The notes under the pieces are model-generated. The model did no database searches. It worked only from the letters and a program-made list of their open reading frames with translations, and was not told the origin of the DNA. From a virus (lineage: Duplodnaviria; Heunggongvirae; Uroviricota; Caudoviricetes), in IMG/VR virus record IMGVR_UViG_2029527006_000005: a stretch of 64,000 nucleotides of DNA; one strand, given 5' to 3'. Below, one piece after another: positions 3,320 to 59,792 of the stretch. Every line of letters begins with the position of its first letter. The stretch's first letter is position 1. The position numbers and the translations under genes were made by a program.

Positions 3320-3407
3320 TGGTGGGAGAGGCAAGGACTCGAACCTTGCATTGTCACTAGGACTAAGACACTGGAGATGCCTATGTATACCTTTCCATCA
3401 CTCTCCC
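3320..3407 (-). tRNA. tRNA, class II length (88 nt), isotype undetermined
   Basis: reverse complement has acceptor GGGAGAG/CTCTCCC, T-arm CAAGG-TTCGAGT-CCTTG and encoded CCA; anticodon arm could not be folded by eye. Confidence 0.5.
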
Positions 3408-9090: not shown

Positions 9091-9183
9091 TGGAGGTAGA
9101 TGTGAGATTTGAACTCACGAGCCGCTATTAACGGCTGCCAATTTTCAAGATTGGTGCAATAAGCCAGCCTCTGCCAATCTACC
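9091..9183 (-). tRNA. tRNA-Ser (anticodon UGA)
   Basis: acceptor GGTAGAT/ATCTACC, anticodon stem ACCAAT/ATTGG with loop CTTGAAA, long variable arm CAGCCGTTAATAGCGGCTCG, T-arm GTGAG-TTCAAAT-CTCAC, CCA. Confidence 0.75.
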
Positions 9184-10224: not shown

Positions 10225-10262
10225 TTATATTATATCACTATTTTTCACTGTTTGTCCCAAGT
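10225..10262 (-). promoter_or_regulatory. conserved sigma70-like promoter (copy 2)
   Basis: attatatcac (10229-10238) ... tgtcccaag (10253-10261); 18-nt spacer. Confidence 0.55.
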
Positions 10263-10581: not shown

Positions 10582-10618
10582 TATTATTATATCACAAAAT
10601 TATGCGTTTGTCCCAAGT
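10582..10618 (-). promoter_or_regulatory. conserved sigma70-like promoter (copy 3)
   Basis: attatatcaca (10586-10596) ... tgtcccaag (10609-10617); 17-nt spacer; overlaps the 3' end of the upstream gene. Confidence 0.6.
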
Positions 10619-12226: not shown

Positions 12227-12263
12227 ATTTATTATATCACATAATCAAGCGTTTGTCCCAAGA
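12227..12263 (-). promoter_or_regulatory. conserved sigma70-like promoter (copy 4)
   Basis: attatatcaca (12231-12241) ... tgtcccaag (12254-12262); 17-nt spacer. Confidence 0.6.
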
Positions 12264-26200: not shown

Positions 26201-26282
26201 TGGTCCGGGCGGCAAGATTCGAACTCGCATACTCCAATTACTCGATTAACGACGGGTTAGAAGCCCGTTGAGATACGCCCGG
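26201..26282 (-). ncRNA. tRNA-like gene (aberrant; possibly Arg-UCU derived)
   Basis: acceptor CCGGGCG/CGCCCGG, T-arm GCGAG-TTCGAAT-CTTGC, CCA, hairpin ACGGG-CTTCTAA-CCCGT, but no recognisable D-arm; its 5' end coincides with the predicted TSS of promoter copy 5. Confidence 0.4.
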
Positions 26283-26286
26283 TTTA

Positions 26287-26323
26287 TTTTATTATATCAC
26301 ATTAACTGATTTTTGTCCCAAGA
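26287..26323 (-). promoter_or_regulatory. conserved sigma70-like promoter (copy 5)
   Basis: attatatcaca (26291-26301) ... tgtcccaag (26314-26322); 17-nt spacer. Confidence 0.6.
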
Positions 26324-32681: not shown

Positions 32682-32758
32682 TGGTGCTAACGGTAGGACT
32701 TGAACCCACAAAATGCCTCATTACAAGTGAGGTGCTGTACCAATTGAGCCACGTCAGC
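32682..32758 (-). tRNA. tRNA-Thr (anticodon UGU)
   Basis: acceptor GCTGACG/CGTTAGC, D-arm GCTCAATTGGTACAGC, anticodon stem CCTCA/TGAGG with loop CTTGTAA, T-arm GTGGG-TTCAAGT-CCTAC, CCA. Confidence 0.75.
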
Positions 32759-32810: not shown

Positions 32811-32847
32811 TTCTATTATATCACATTATCAGTGATTTGTCCCAAGT
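32811..32847 (-). promoter_or_regulatory. conserved sigma70-like promoter (copy 6)
   Basis: attatatcaca (32815-32825) ... tgtcccaag (32838-32846); 17-nt spacer. Confidence 0.6.
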
Positions 32848-35271: not shown

Positions 35272-35362
<91 letters not shown>

Positions 35363-35366
35363 GTAA

Positions 35367-35403
35367 TTATATTATATCACATTTTTCTTGCTTTGTCCCA
35401 ACT
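35367..35403 (-). promoter_or_regulatory. conserved sigma70-like promoter (copy 7)
   Basis: attatatcaca (35371-35381) ... tgtcccaac (35394-35402); 17-nt spacer. Confidence 0.6.
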
Positions 35404-37350: not shown

Positions 37351-37579
37351 TGTTTTCTTCCTCTAATTGTCTTGCAATATCTTCTTCGTACTTGCGTTCT
37401 TCCATTTCTTCAACGGATTGCATGATACTAGAGCAAATCTCATAGAGTTGATCATATGCACGGCGTTCGTATTGGTTTAGTTCATCAGGATCGAAATCCT
37501 CTTCCCACATACGTTCTTTGATTTCTTCCATTGCGGTAACTGTATTTTCGAACATACAGTATGACATGTTAATTCCCAT
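37334..37579 (-). CDS. hypothetical acidic protein (81 aa)
   Basis: ORF track. Confidence 0.45.
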   Translation of the reverse strand: MGINMSYCMFENTVTAMEEIKERMWEEDFDPDELNQYERRAYDQLYEICSSIMQSVEEMEERKYEEDIARQLEEENNDSEE

Positions 37580-38543
37580 GTGTCAAGTCCTCTGCTAGTT
37601 TAAGTATTCTTTCTTTTTTGGCAATCTTATCTACCCATTCAGCAGGGATACCATCAAGACCATAGAAAGCACCTGCAATCTGTCCTGTAATCGCCGCCAC
37701 TGTATCAGCATCATCACCTAAGTTTGCTGCAAGTAGGATTGCATCTTTGAAGTTTTTAGTACTATAGAAGCACCACAAAGCAGCTTCTAGTGAATCAAGC
37801 ACATATCCAGTAGAATGAATATCATCGCGTTCTTTATTCTTATATGATCCACCCATGATAGTTAGTATTTCGCGTGAAGTTACAATACCTTCCCAGACTT
37901 TTTCCGGGAATGAAAGTAATGAACGTTTTGACTGTTCTTCATCAGGTTCAACCCCATCCAATTCAATACGACCATTAATTGCACGGTTAAGTAGTACTGC
38001 AAACGCAATACACGATTCACGACATAAAGTACTAGCATGTGTGGTTGAACTGCTTAAATCAGCAGCATATACTAATGTAGAAAAGTCTTCAACTGTATTA
38101 GTATTGTAATAGATTGGAATTGGAGCCAAACGCATAAGACTACCATTTCCAGAATCTAGAAAATGTTCATTATTACGCAAAATTCCATCACGTATGTAAT
38201 TCATCAATGCATTACGTGTTGTCCCACCAATATCAAAACAATGACCATTAGAACTGCAATACCCATTTTTGTACCAATCAACATAATTTATTAGTTGTTC
38301 TTCTGACCATTTGATACTATCTTGAATATCATTTACATCGTAGTTTTCTAGTAAAGCATAGCCTAAGCACAATGCCATACTTGTATCATCAGTCCATTGG
38401 CCGGGATCTAATTGAAAAGGTCCACCACCAACCATATCAGTGATGTTCTCGTAATCCCGTTCTTTGAACTCTAAGGTAGTCCCAACTGCATCACCTACTG
38501 CTAATCCCATTAGGCAACCTTGCGTTCGATTTAGTTTACTCAT
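37569..38543 (-). CDS. ADP-ribosylglycohydrolase (ARH/DraG family)
   Basis: GCLMGLAVGDAVGTTLEF, GNGSLMRLAPI and LGDDADTVAAITGQIAGAFYG are hallmark ARH motifs. Confidence 0.8.
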   Translation of the reverse strand: MSKLNRTQGCLMGLAVGDAVGTTLEFKERDYENITDMVGGGPFQLDPGQWTDDTSMALCLGYALLENYDVNDIQDSIKWSEEQLINYVDWYKNGYCSSNGHCFDIGGTTRNALMNYIRDGILRNNEHFLDSGNGSLMRLAPIPIYYNTNTVEDFSTLVYAADLSSSTTHASTLCRESCIAFAVLLNRAINGRIELDGVEPDEEQSKRSLLSFPEKVWEGIVTSREILTIMGGSYKNKERDDIHSTGYVLDSLEAALWCFYSTKNFKDAILLAANLGDDADTVAAITGQIAGAFYGLDGIPAEWVDKIAKKERILKLAEDLTHGN

Positions 38544-38863
38544 TATATGTCTCCCATTGTATCATAGATGGATTTGACCAATTCCAATTGTGATTTAATT
38601 TGTTCCTTTAGATCTAATATAGATTCAGTAGCAGAAATATCACTATAACCACGAATGAGTTCATCGTTGGAATTAGTTAAATTACTTACTGAACGATAGT
38701 TTTTATGTCTATACGAATATGTCAAATAAAAGTGTTCGTGACTAACTGAAATATCATCAGTATATGGATGACCTGCTTCTTTCCATCCGGGAAATAACGA
38801 ATTAACTTCATTTAAGAGTTCAGTTATTGTTATCATTTTTATTCCTATTATCTGATTAGCCAA
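38543..38863 (-). CDS. hypothetical protein (106 aa)
   Basis: ORF track; first gene after the long leader. Confidence 0.5.
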   Translation of the reverse strand: MANQIIGIKMITITELLNEVNSLFPGWKEAGHPYTDDISVSHEHFYLTYSYRHKNYRSVSNLTNSNDELIRGYSDISATESILDLKEQIKSQLELVKSIYDTMGDI

Positions 38864-39427
38864 TCTTACGATTGTCTAAGAATTTTCGATTCTCTTACTC
38901 ACTTCGTTCGTATCGTATCTCAATTCATTTTGTACTGTTAATACTGACGAGGTTTGTTGAGGCAATTTCATCCCCCACAGGGGGAATGAAGACAATAAAA
39001 AAGTACTAATTAAAGTACTGAATATTGTTCTGACGCTGGTGGCATCGGAATTTTCGAATCGTGAATTTCTCTGAATTTTAGACGTAACTATAGCGTACTA
39101 AAATTGGTCAAAGAACGAAAGCGGGTTGCTCTGTTTCTCTCTATCACGGTCATGTGCAACGGTCGTAGTCTTACTACACTCACACAAAGCCTATTCGAAC
39201 AAGCTCTGTGTGCAACGCCTAAGCGTTTCCCTTAGCATATTGGTGAGTGACCTCATATGTCTATCTTGGAGCCTTAACGTGCCTTACGTTGCTCTTTATA
39301 GTGCCACATTGCCGCGAACGGGTTTCATCTGCACTTCGCATGTGTGGTCATGCTCATCGTCCCTTTACGTTTTCAAGGGTTTCGGTTTAATACGTCTGCA
39401 TATAGCAGCCACAATTGTTACATCTAA
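38864..39427 (-). other. 560-nt untranslated leader, candidate structured ncRNA
   Basis: no minus-strand ORF between promoter copy 8 and the next gene; contains a perfect 10-bp hairpin TTCATCCCCC-ACA-GGGGGAATGAA (38967-38990). Confidence 0.35.
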
Positions 39428-39464
39428 ATTTATTATATCACATTATTCGCCATCTGTCCCAAGT
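39428..39464 (-). promoter_or_regulatory. conserved sigma70-like promoter (copy 8)
   Basis: attatatcaca (39432-39442) ... tgtcccaag (39455-39463); 17-nt spacer. Confidence 0.6.
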
Positions 39465-39943
39465 TTTAACGCCCTCCTGATATCCTCTAATGTCTCAGAG
39501 AACCAATCATGTCCGTCAAATGGATTAATGACTCTACCATGCATGTAGTAGTAATGACAGAACGGTAAAGTACTGGAAATTAACATCTCTTGTAGTTTAG
39601 GATTCTGTGCAATTTTACATATAATCGCACCTTGCATCACTTCTATTGTTTCTTCAGTTAAGTATTTCTCAGTTCGATCGGACTCATAACTTTGTCCTTT
39701 AACTTTAGCATAAGAACCACTTAGCGTTCTCAAATCTTCATGTTTCTGTCCGGTTAAGTACCAATAGTAAAAGCCTTCCACTGAGTTGAATTTACCATAC
39801 TCTGTATACACGAACGGGGAGAATGCAAAATTTGATAGCATCCTCCCCAATTCGGTACGACCTTTACTATATGTATTAATGTGGGTAAATCCATCATCGG
39901 TTGGATCAAAGTATTCATACTTTTCCTGTTCCCATTCAAACAT
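39443..39943 (-). CDS. NADAR (YbiA/DUF1768)-like protein
   Basis: LSNFAFSPFVY...FNSVEGFYYWYLTG parallels YbiA FSNFAAWPI...SEHYFQAQKF; C-terminal region also aligns (ICKIAQNPKLQEMLISST / RAKFEQHAELRALLLAT). Confidence 0.5.
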   Translation of the reverse strand: MFEWEQEKYEYFDPTDDGFTHINTYSKGRTELGRMLSNFAFSPFVYTEYGKFNSVEGFYYWYLTGQKHEDLRTLSGSYAKVKGQSYESDRTEKYLTEETIEVMQGAIICKIAQNPKLQEMLISSTLPFCHYYYMHGRVINPFDGHDWFSETLEDIRRALKLGTDGE

Positions 39944-40572
39944 TATTCAGTATACCTATTATTTGTTAAATCATCTAGGATTGAATTTTTATATTGCGTC
40001 AAAACATTAACTAAATCAATCTCACCTGTATATTTTATAATAAGCCTTTCAGTTATTTCAATTTTTGCATTTTGCCATGCCCGATGTGCATCAAACTCAC
40101 TATAAAAACATCCAAGGTGCTTCTTTTTATGGTTTTCATGAATACACGCATGATAATGCTTATCTCGGTTTTCAACGTATGAAACACCAATAGCATATTC
40201 ACCCCGGCCTTTCTCACTTTTTAAAATTAAAGTGTTTATTTCATGAGGGACAAAAATGCATGTTTGTGGTGAATAATGTTTATTACCGGGAATTAAAAGG
40301 TCTTTGTCAATATCACGATCTTTATAATTTTGCTTCACTACCCATGATTTAAAATTAGTAAAGGATTTCCAATCTTCATGAATAGTAGTTCCGATATATG
40401 ATGGAAATTTATCTAGAAATTTTTCACTATAACAACGCTCTAAAATATTTCTCCATGTGGTGTATATAGGACACCTCCATACTTGTTTCGATTTACCATT
40501 CACAACTTCGGATTTTGCTATTGGTTCAGGGGAGTCATTGACTCCCACACCGTATATTAGTTTCTTTGGCAT
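39943..40572 (-). CDS. putative DNA-binding / HNH-like protein (209 aa)
   Basis: basic N-terminus KVWRCPIYTTWRNILERCY; HYHACIHENHKKKH; weak resemblance to phage mobile-endonuclease accessory domains. Confidence 0.3.
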   Translation of the reverse strand: MPKKLIYGVGVNDSPEPIAKSEVVNGKSKQVWRCPIYTTWRNILERCYSEKFLDKFPSYIGTTIHEDWKSFTNFKSWVVKQNYKDRDIDKDLLIPGNKHYSPQTCIFVPHEINTLILKSEKGRGEYAIGVSYVENRDKHYHACIHENHKKKHLGCFYSEFDAHRAWQNAKIEITERLIIKYTGEIDLVNVLTQYKNSILDDLTNNRYTE

Positions 40573-59755: not shown

Positions 59756-59792
59756 CAATATTATATCACATTTTTGCTTCTTTGTCTCAAAA
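59756..59792 (-). promoter_or_regulatory. conserved sigma70-like promoter (copy 9, -35 variant TTGAGACA)
   Basis: attatatcaca (59760-59770) ... tgtctcaa (59783-59790); 17-nt spacer; 30 nt upstream of the gp39 start. Confidence 0.55.

Follow-up and report, generated by a model that had tools for sequence, protein, structure and literature searches.

Evidence that a gap between phage genes holds a large, pseudoknotted non-coding RNA found in Rak2-like jumbo phages and in an Escherichia coli defence island

What, if not a protein, is encoded between two minus-strand genes at positions 38864-39427 of the 64,000-nt stretch of viral DNA analyzed here (IMG/VR record IMGVR_UViG_2029527006_000005, Caudoviricetes)? 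This whole stretch, hereafter the window, belongs to a Rak2-like jumbo phage whose closest relatives are the Salmonella phages Munch, 7t3, and SE_PL (~85-89% identity in this region). A preliminary description of the sequence proposed that the gap is transcribed, untranslated, and a candidate structured non-coding RNA (ncRNA). Covariation, the missing reading frame, and fold stability support that proposal and extend it: the whole gap, from ~39425 to ~38855 on the minus strand, is very probably one gene for a structured ncRNA of ~570 nt, which fills the space up to the ribosome-binding site (RBS) of the next gene and belongs to a multi-copy family. As to its function, we lean with moderate confidence toward a new class of stable, large RNA that would act in trans, as a ribozyme, as the core of a ribonucleoprotein (RNP), or as a decoy.

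Between the stop codon of the upstream gene at 39443 and the next minus-strand open reading frame (ORF), listed with a TTG start at 38863, there is no minus-strand ORF longer than 39 aa, in agreement with the preliminary description. Only one long frame occurs in the gap:

39126-39548, plus strand: 140-aa ORF, antisense to the RNA

This frame stays free of stops for 113 codons here, for 90 in Munch, and for 75 in a relative that is 94% identical; the antisense ORF decays even among relatives that are 90-94% identical. In the other homologs the longest open stretches shift from copy to copy in strand, frame, position, and length, and no reading frame is conserved among them in strand, phase, or length. 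The plus-strand ORF, already suspected of being spurious, is therefore rejected as a gene, and a conserved coding frame in homologous phages—the observation that the preliminary description had named as contrary to an RNA—does not occur.

What is conserved is an RNA fold. The family profile (nhmmer) scores the window copy, the only one in the 64 kb, at 418 bits. A structure model drawn in window coordinates and counted on 24 distinct divergent copies contains ~17 helices and five long-range pairings changed on both sides (PK1, PK2, PK3, PK4, and PK6), with a sixth, PK5, tentative; it comprises a core of ~400 nt within the ~570-nt unit, and ~130 positions are invariant. In this model 94.4% of the cells pair, and sliding the 3' partners by 1-3 columns lowers this to 38-46%; changes on both sides affect 58 of 96 pairs and 301 cells, against 17-25 pairs and 26-42 cells in the slid controls. 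Among 500 column shuffles, uncorrected for phylogeny, none reaches any of the five observed measures. An unbiased scan by mutual information with average product correction (MI/APC) on 41 non-redundant copies places model helices at nearly every top rank and exposes PK2-PK5. The minus strand of the 564-nt gap folds at -159.8 kcal/mol, as against -127.0 +/- 5.9 for shuffled sequences (z = -5.5). Compensatory changes beyond those of shuffled and slid controls, together with the lack of a conserved frame, are the generic signature of a structured ncRNA; the two checks that the preliminary description had suggested, covariation across related phages and folding of the minus strand, thus both speak for an RNA, the first overwhelmingly. 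Throughout the alignments, invariant blocks (for example CGACCGUUGC, GAUAGAGAGA, GAGCAACCCGC, UAAGGGA, and GAUAGA) alternate with hairpins whose stems change in compensatory fashion and whose tips accept insertions of any length. The RNA fold is under strong purifying selection. The parts of the model are as follows.

38855-39425, minus strand: whole RNA gene, in order 5' leader, core (P0-P13), P14, P15 and tail, 3' extension (P16a/P16/P17)
39409-39413, minus strand: 5' strand of PK6, UGUGG, pairing with CCACA of the P2 loop (39343-39347)
39396-39408, minus strand: hairpin P0, CUGC/GCAG, variable between paralogs
39361-39379, minus strand: hairpin P1, CCCUU/AAGGG, conserved loop GAAAACGUA; 92.5% paired, three of five pairs changed on both sides
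39338-39353, minus strand: stem P2, GCA/UGC, longer in this copy, its loop forming PK6; 100% paired, two of three pairs changed on both sides
39300-39335, minus strand: P3 and P4, with P3 (AGUGC/GCACU) enclosing J3/4 AGAUGAAAC and P4 (CCG-UUCG-CGG)
39307-39309 with 39257-39259, minus strand: PK4, AUG of J4/3 with CAU; 97% paired
39269-39294, minus strand: hairpin P5, whose loop GGC(A) at 39280-39283 forms PK3 with UGCU at 39234-39237 (J6/7)
39244-39255, minus strand: hairpin P6, UGAG-GUCA-CUCA; 83% paired, two pairs changed on both sides
39214-39227, minus strand: hairpin P7, AACGC-UUAG-GCGUU; 92% paired, three of three pairs changed on both sides
39181-39212, minus strand: hairpin P8, 13 bp, whose loop UUCGAA at 39194-39199 forms PK1; 91% paired, 11 of 13 pairs changed on both sides
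39165-39177, minus strand: hairpin P9, GUAGU-AAG-ACUAC; 92.5% paired, three of four pairs changed on both sides
39156-39160, minus strand: 5' strand of PK2, GUUGC within the invariant CGACCGUUGC, pairing with GCAAC of the P11 loop (39125-39129)
39060-39148, minus strand: P10, CGUGA/UCACG, enclosing P11 and P12
within 39060-39148, minus strand: P11, GAGAG/CUUUC, with a near-invariant 15-nt loop AAACAGAGCAACCCG
within 39060-39148, minus strand: P12, UCU/AGA, with a variable hairpin
39053-39059, minus strand: 3' strand of PK1, AUUCGAA, just 3' of P10, pairing with the P8 loop
39032-39046, minus strand: hairpin P13, GAUG-CCACCAG-CGUC, containing the first CGUCAG motif
38997-39019, minus strand: hairpin P14, AGUACU-UUAAUU-AGUACU, then a U-run at 38997-39001
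38967-38990, minus strand: hairpin P15, 10 bp UUCAUUCCCC/GGGGGAUGAA (nine Watson-Crick pairs and one G.U), CUGU tetraloop
38944-38966, minus strand: single-stranded tail, conserved AUUGCCUCAACAAACCUCGUCAG, with the second CGUCAG motif
38922-38926 with 38880-38884, minus strand: P16a, GAAUU/AAUUC, in the 3' extension (38861-38926)
38910-38912 with 38896-38898, minus strand: P16, UAC/GUA, with loop GAACGAAGUGA; the stems vary and the loop is kept
38861-38874, minus strand: P17, CAAUC-GUAA-GAUUG, then conserved GGCUAAUC

The long-range pairings tie distant parts of this model together. PK1 comprises 6-7 bp, with all seven positions changed on both sides, 99.3% of cells paired, and 41 of 41 copies pairing at six positions; its strands are palindromic (UUCGAA) in the window copy only and non-palindromic in the others. 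PK2 is 100% paired, and its discriminating pair, 39156-39129, reads CG in 27 copies, UA in 12, and AU in one. PK3 covaries at 39282-39235 (GC:20, UA:10) and at 39281-39236 (CG:22, AU:10), and PK4 at 39307-39259 (GC:34, AU:6). The complementarity between leader and P2 loop that makes up PK6 extends over 5-8 bp in most copies and takes the form of at least 10 different complementary sequence pairs, among them CUGAUUGA/UCAAUCAG and CUGAAAGG/CCUUUCAG. PK5, tentatively, would join GUC 38991-38993, 5' of P15, to GAC 39149-39151 (39151-38991 GC:21, AU:16). Several other pairings were tried and rejected: a 5'-3' closing helix GAUGAG/CUCGUC, broken wherever either side varies; GCAAU/GUUGC (J4/3 with J9/10), replaced by PK2, since it is with the P11 loop that the discriminating position covaries; AACG of the P1 loop with CGUU, kept in just 22-35 of 37-41 copies; and a long-range AGG/CCU pair proposed by RNAalifold, which is unsupported.

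Among the local helices, P3 and P4 are 99-100% paired, with four of the five P3 pairs changed on both sides, and P4 is a variable hairpin of 20-45 nt in other copies. P7 emerges in the MI scan by its pairs 39226-39215, 39225-39216, and 39224-39217, and carries insertions of up to ~70 nt in other paralogs. P10-P12 are 99-100% paired (41 of 41 copies), with three pairs per helix changed on both sides. The least supported helix is P13, in which the outer two pairs are invariant and the inner ones weak; P0 is poorly aligned between copies and 60% paired, and a hairpin stands at the same place in most listed copies.

The hairpin of the preliminary description, said to be perfect over 10 bp and placed at 38967-38990, is P15. 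Its location stands, and it is perfect as minus-strand RNA only; as plus-strand DNA its arms measure 10 and 11 nt, with one bulged A. It is moreover a peripheral helix and a minor part of the ~570-nt RNA. P15 is 92.5% paired with one-sided changes only, its inner five pairs form in 41 of 41 copies, and its loop is UGCG, of the UNCG type, in most copies. P14, just upstream, is 95% paired with four of six pairs changed on both sides; it is present in a- and b-type copies (named for their loci, described below) and missing from c- and d-type copies; 121Q_c, 7t3_c/d, and XaC1 lack it. Its stem here has only two G-C pairs, and a terminator scan requiring at least three did not call it; in several copies the stem is longer (AGUACAC/GUGUACU in GAP32, for example), and a U-run follows in each. 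Farther downstream, P17 occurs in 16 of 24 copies, with six different complementary stems. The motifs of the 3' extension occur once each in the 64-kb window, with no occurrence elsewhere, including at the other copies of the promoter. As a separate observation, the two CGUCA(G/A) motifs (39030-39035 and 38944-38949) change in parallel between copies, as do two positions upstream of each, 39039 with 38952 and 39048 with 38962, the counts being GG:27, AA:13 and UU:28, CC:13. This parallel change may reflect a shared ligand or only the phylogeny of the paralogs.

Two kinds of evidence, the promoter and G.U pairs specific to one strand, allow transcription to be predicted. In most copies many of the pairs take the form G.U (columns 364-375, 366-373, 440-461, and 599-613) and would be A.C mismatches on the other strand, which argues that the selected molecule is the minus-strand RNA. 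The promoter lies immediately upstream:

39432-39460, minus strand: sigma-70-type promoter, -35 GGGACA at 39460-39455, 17-nt spacer, extended -10 TG-n-TATAAT at 39440-39432

This GGGACA-17-TATAAT arrangement with its upstream TG agrees with the consensus at 10 of 12 positions and has the make-up of a sigma-70 extended -10 promoter (a TTGACA-like hexamer, a spacer of 16-18 nt, TATAAT, and TG one base upstream of the -10); transcription is predicted to proceed on the minus strand from ~39425. The word TGATATAATA occurs nine times in the 64-kb window, always on the minus strand, where 1.4 occurrences are expected, and the occurrence here is indeed the eighth copy, as the preliminary description had counted it. 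The others are:

2749-2758, 10228-10237, 10585-10594, 12230-12239, 26290-26299, 32814-32823, 35370-35379, and 59759-59768, minus strand: further copies of TGATATAATA

Three of these, at 26290, 32814, and 35370, stand directly upstream of tRNA genes (26204-26282, 32682-32758, and 35272-35362, respectively), and the remaining five possibly drive further small RNAs. Across the family, TGnTATAAT lies upstream of 12 of the 19 listed copies, 55-90 nt before P1. Two observations concern the tRNAs themselves: ARAGORN reports a tRNA-Ser with the unusual anticodon ACT at 35272-35362, and ARAGORN and Rfam differ on three tRNAs, two called by ARAGORN only and one by Rfam only (3320-3405, 9091-9183, and 26204-26282).

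Since P14 resembles a terminator and is absent from c- and d-type copies, two isoforms are plausible, one of ~425 nt ending at P14 and one of ~570 nt that includes P15 and the 3' extension. In b-type copies a strong terminator follows ~40 nt after P17; in a-type copies the RNA runs into the RBS of the next gene. The c-type copies have, in addition, a strong hairpin and U-run between the promoter and the conserved RNA body, for example AAGGTGAC...GTCACCTTTTTTT, which could be an attenuator or a separate tiny transcript:

L047 ~2780-2880: post-promoter hairpin of the 121Q c locus
L056 ~1400-1475: post-promoter hairpin of the 7t3 c locus

How widely is this RNA distributed? The intergenic DNA matches 62-71 phage records, all of them genomes of 310-386 kb, at 3-5 places per genome; recorded hosts are Escherichia, Salmonella, Klebsiella, Erwinia, Yersinia, Serratia, Cronobacter, Pectobacterium, and Xanthomonas. 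Among phages the family was found only in Rak2-like jumbo phages, and the genera examined that carry it are Mimasvirus, Asteriusvirus, Eneladusvirus, Alcyoneusvirus, and relatives. A scan of IMG/VR with a degenerate pattern returned 40 loci, of which the profile confirms full or partial copies in 39 (all except L078), all on jumbo-size contigs or fragments of such; jumbo contigs have 3-4 each, four being the most on any contig. Metagenomes added three further jumbo-phage contigs and nothing else. The paralog groups are 54-70% identical to each other. They are old and are held at syntenic loci. In fHe-Yen9-04, for instance, copies lie near 25, 174, 260, and 335 kb, in a group whose genomes measure ~350 kb.

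The window copy occupies what we call the a locus, which is syntenic in Munch, GAP32, CBB, and XbC2 and is the only locus with a recurrent neighbor, an ADP-ribosylglycohydrolase gene. That gene directly follows the RNA in Munch, BF, and two further loci (L011 and L033), and follows after one small ORF in this window and in XbC2. In PBECO4 and BF the b locus is bounded by the genes for endonuclease VII and the baseplate hub, both of which are on the opposite strand; the copy there ends in its own strong terminator and has no co-oriented gene downstream. In XaC1 the upstream endonuclease VII gene of the b locus is retained. The c and d loci lie in other contexts, and the genes that follow the RNA are not the same at the a, c, and d loci or in the E. 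coli island described below. No IscB, TnpB, reverse transcriptase, or recombinase gene was found beside the phage copies examined. In the window, the genes flanking the gap are all on the minus strand:

39443-39943, minus strand: upstream gene, phrog_652, 166 aa, no Pfam match, stop at 39443
38543-38846, minus strand: downstream ORF outside the RNA, RBS AGGA at 38843-38846, ATG at 38836, 97 aa
37569-38543, minus strand: ADP-ribosylglycohydrolase gene, next after the 97-aa ORF

The TTG start at 38863 listed for the downstream ORF falls within the P17 helix, and the ATG at 38836, behind AGGA, is more plausibly its start. This 97-aa ORF is missing in Munch, where the glycohydrolase gene comes directly after the RNA. 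Two genes upstream of the RNA, as a side observation, lies a free-standing HNH endonuclease gene (39943-40572, minus strand; phrog_953, E = 1e-80).

A full-length copy is also present outside phages, in 2 of 5,426 complete E. coli genomes, where it scores 411 bits against the family profile. It is closest to the phage b-type (80.6% identity to the copy of Serratia phage BF), and the RNA segment is all that the island has in common with phages: the phage-type promoter GGGATGA...TGTGATATAAT is kept, no phage gene stands alongside, and homology between the phage and island copies ends at the AUUGCCUCAACAAACCUCGUCAG tail. The copy resides in a defence island, to which an island of another E. coli strain is a sister:

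NZ_AP027515.1 (L061 11655-22000): island of E. coli LR-29-1, ~11 kb, integrated next to ffs
L088 4686-15613: sister island of E. coli EC23-1020, with a type III restriction res-like gene in the same slot

Among the products of the LR-29-1 island are an integrase, split by IS3, a serine recombinase, and proteins of the mSLOG-DUF4326, DUF488, and DuOB types; the DUF488 and DuOB proteins match the candidate defence system PDC-M45, and the recombinase genes lie kilobases away from the RNA copy. Proteins with DUF4326 and DUF488 are common to both islands, as is a third gene in the position of DuOB. In EC23-1020 the res-like gene is flanked by the same promoter, by a degenerate P14/P15/tail, and by a piece resembling the 3' extension, with the RNA core missing; the P15 of this remnant is compensated (ACUCUC/GGGAGU). 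That the RNA and the res-like gene take the same slot, with such remnants at its flanks, suggests that promoter plus RNA form an exchangeable cargo cassette, and the island RNA is presumably useful in a cell that holds no phage proteins. Two exact-pattern scans of bacterial and archaeal species representatives, of a kind that would miss diverged copies, found none, and plasmids gave no match.

Genes related to NAD or ADP-ribose lie beside the RNA in two unrelated settings, namely the glycohydrolase gene in phages and the genes for mSLOG-DUF4326, DUF488, and DuOB in the island:

window 37569-38543; L001 3616-4581; L054 2160-3086; L061 18693-20424: NAD/ADP-ribose-related neighbors

The mSLOG-DUF4326 domain has been tied to systems with Macro, SLOG, and NADAR domains (PMC7824862). 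We treat this neighborhood as a lead only, as it may be coincidence.

Whether the RNA belongs to a described class was examined in databases and in the literature. At the gathering threshold, the 4,227 covariance models of Rfam 15—which include RNase P, tmRNA, group I and II introns, GOLLD, ROOL, OLE, HEARO, raiA, 6S, and riboswitches—match only tRNAs in the window, all of them elsewhere. With E up to 10, positions 38700-39600 return only a chance match to STnc410, on the other strand and mostly outside the RNA; with E up to 5, 11 homologous loci return a lone, non-recurring match to VqmR, on the opposite strand of one locus, at 26 bits against a gathering score of 76. The Rfam comparison that the preliminary description had recommended therefore assigns the element to no known family. 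ARAGORN finds 11 tRNAs in the window, none of them in 38855-39425, and no tmRNA. The literature consulted, including the PA5oct and CBB genome papers, a survey of 224 jumbo phages, and a survey of viral csRNAs, does not describe the RNA. We accordingly rate the element as a new RNA class, absent from the databases and literature searched.

Its nearest counterparts in kind may be GOLLD and ROOL (PMC12286853). Like the present RNA, these are large (roughly 500-800 nt), ornate, and encoded by stand-alone genes in tRNA-carrying phages, with many conserved nucleotides and no syntenic protein partner. They differ in that their Rfam models do not match and that their hosts are Lactobacillales or rumen phages, whereas this RNA belongs to jumbo myoviruses of Enterobacterales and Xanthomonas and has 3-5 diverged paralogs per genome. 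Long ncRNAs have been documented by RNA-seq in PA5oct, described as related to the group of 121Q, RaK2, and GAP32: ncRNA001 and ncRNA002, of 236 and 451 nt, are free of ORFs and make up 1-5% of phage reads depending on the stage (PMC7318152). Jumbo phages of this group, then, do produce long ncRNAs in abundance. At the level of sequence, a comparison of both (L062 764-999 and 14452-14902) with the family by nhmmer, with filters off, found no similarity.

How, then, might the RNA work? In the reading we favor, an apparently strong sigma-70 extended -10 promoter, of the type that drives the tRNA genes of this phage, would start transcription at ~39425, and the transcript would end at the optional P14 (~425 nt) or after the 3' extension (~570 nt). 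Covariation shows that the RNA folds compactly into two domains, a 5' domain of PK6, P1-P7, PK3, and PK4 and a 3' domain of P8-P13, PK1, and PK2, whose pairings hold together the ~130 invariant loop and junction nucleotides. It would probably be stable, abundant, and expressed early, and would act in trans: as a ribozyme, as the core of an RNP whose protein comes from the host or the phage, or as a decoy or sponge in phage-host conflict. Ribozymes and RNP cores typically have such a large core, dense pseudoknots, and numerous invariant nucleotides that are unpaired; the evidence is just as compatible with a decoy or sponge for a factor of host or phage. A trans-acting RNA is favored over a cis element by the b locus, where the gene stands alone, and by the copy in the E. 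coli island; this island copy, together with the lack of a syntenic protein partner, suggests that the RNA works alone or with host factors. Of the options set out in the preliminary description, the structured RNA is borne out and a decoy is compatible with the findings; a cis element controlling the downstream genes is disfavored by the b locus and the island copy. It is conceivable, if rather unlikely, that the RNA is a self-sufficient machine, a ribozyme or decoy in phage-host conflict that needs no dedicated phage protein and is perhaps linked to NAD or ADP-ribose. Such autonomy, if true, would explain how a bare cassette of promoter plus RNA could enter, by exchange, the cargo slot of an E. 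coli defence island.

Several points weigh against a single, trans-acting RNA of this kind. P14 could be an internal terminator-like hairpin, with P15, the tail, and the 3' extension forming a separate element; PK5 is the only link between P15 and the core, and its one covarying pair is split along paralog groups. The EC23-1020 island holds a degenerate P14/P15/tail module without the core. The transcript ends are predictions from the sequence. The MI and shuffle statistics are uncorrected for phylogeny, the slid controls being those that retain sequence relatedness. No partner protein was found in conserved synteny among the loci. Finally, at the a locus the 3' extension ends 10-25 nt before the start codon of the next gene, often that of the glycohydrolase.

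The last of these points also speaks for the main alternative, a cis-acting leader. Here the RNA would be a giant 5' untranslated region (UTR) with control over transcriptional read-through into the genes downstream, the 97-aa ORF and the ADP-ribosylglycohydrolase gene, or over their translation, in the manner of a riboswitch, an attenuator, or a put-type processive antiterminator; P14 could serve as a regulated internal stop, and the terminator-like hairpin right after the promoter of c-type copies would suit such a role. The put RNAs are ~70 nt long, consist of two stem-loops, and act only in cis. The put RNA of HK022 and other cis-acting antiterminator leaders are similarly structured, lie directly behind early promoters, and contain or precede terminator-like hairpins, whereas the present RNA, ~8 times larger than the put RNAs, has pseudoknots and can stand alone as a gene. 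A leader or riboswitch is difficult to reconcile with b-locus copies that have no gene downstream on their strand and carry their own terminator, with the variety of genes that follow at the a, c, and d loci and in the island, with an island copy acquired without any phage gene, and with a promoter type that is used for tRNAs. Furthermore, we know of no riboswitch or leader this large and pseudoknotted. We therefore regard a cis-acting leader as unlikely for the family, while noting that a cis role for the a-locus copy is compatible with a trans role and that the two are not mutually exclusive.

A second possibility is that the unit is a mobile or selfish cassette, non-autonomous and kept by its own mobility. 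Multiple copies in unrelated contexts would be expected of such an element, as would the fact that exactly the RNA unit is common to jumbo phages and a variable cargo slot of an E. coli island, and an HNH endonuclease gene lies nearby in the window. HEARO and omega RNAs are likewise large structured RNAs that move between mobile genomes as discrete units; they differ in that no IscB, TnpB, reverse transcriptase, or recombinase gene adjoins the phage copies examined, and in that Rfam gives no match. The paralogs, however, are old (54-70% identity) and syntenic across genera, with no recent transposition; ~130 invariant positions and compensatory changes attest to purifying selection in every paralog; and no terminal repeats or target duplications were seen in a non-exhaustive search. 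A purely selfish cassette thus appears quite improbable.

Still less probable is a replication-origin transcript, in the manner of ColE1 RNA II or of T4 oriF and oriG, or a function of the DNA itself. The dispersal of copies around genomes of ~350 kb, the promoter that each copy has of its own, and the G-run/C-run hairpin after a U-run (P14/P15) would fit an origin. Yet covariation preserves RNA pairs, including strand-specific G.U, so that RNA rather than duplex DNA is what is selected; in the alignments, which were not searched specifically for such features, neither an AT-rich unwinding element nor a set of repeated sites for protein binding was noticed; and it is not obvious what a chromosomal island would do with a phage origin.

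It is very improbable, too, that the family is a divergent or permuted form of a known large RNA, whether RNase P, a group I or II intron, tmRNA, GOLLD, or ROOL. RNase P RNA (M1) is comparable in outline, with a core of ~400 nt, several long-range pseudoknots, and invariant junction nucleotides, and the present RNA has a promoter of the stable-RNA type and a tRNA-rich setting, with many phage tRNAs under the same type of promoter. A few blocks also look alike by eye: ACGACCGUUGCA and ACAGAGCAACCCGC resemble ACGACCAGUGCAACAGAGAGCAAACCGCC of M1, GCUAAGGGAG resembles GGUAAGGGUG, and AGAUGAG...CAGAAGAAACCCG resembles AGAUGAAUG...ACAGAACCCGG. These blocks, however, stand in a different order and in different structural contexts (GAGAG, for example, is a helix strand here), no equivalent of P4 (CR-I with CR-V) was identified, and Rfam, ARAGORN, and the rnpB comparison were all negative. 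Bacterial RNase P RNA was rejected because the family profile gave no alignment to E. coli rnpB with filters off and Rfam gave no RNase P match; a group I or II intron was rejected because the element lies outside any gene, between flanking genes that are complete and unrelated between loci, and no intron model of Rfam matched. An unrecognised protein-coding gene or pseudogene, suggested by the 140-aa plus-strand ORF and by the small hypothetical ORFs that some depositors annotate over homologous regions, can be set aside almost entirely, as no frame is conserved in strand, phase, or length, substitutions in helices are compensatory, and indels of any length are limited to hairpin tips.

Classes of large RNA with a complex fold are rare, RNase P, tmRNA, group I and II introns, OLE, GOLLD, ROOL, HEARO, and raiA being the main examples, and each has opened new biochemistry. 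The addition of a further class from Rak2-like phages would bear on a group that infects E. coli, Salmonella, and Klebsiella and is under development for therapy, and in whose genomes the RNA is left unannotated or is overlaid with small ORFs that are spurious. The capture of the RNA and its promoter by an E. coli island provides, in addition, a genetic handle on whether the RNA alone alters infection by jumbo phages.

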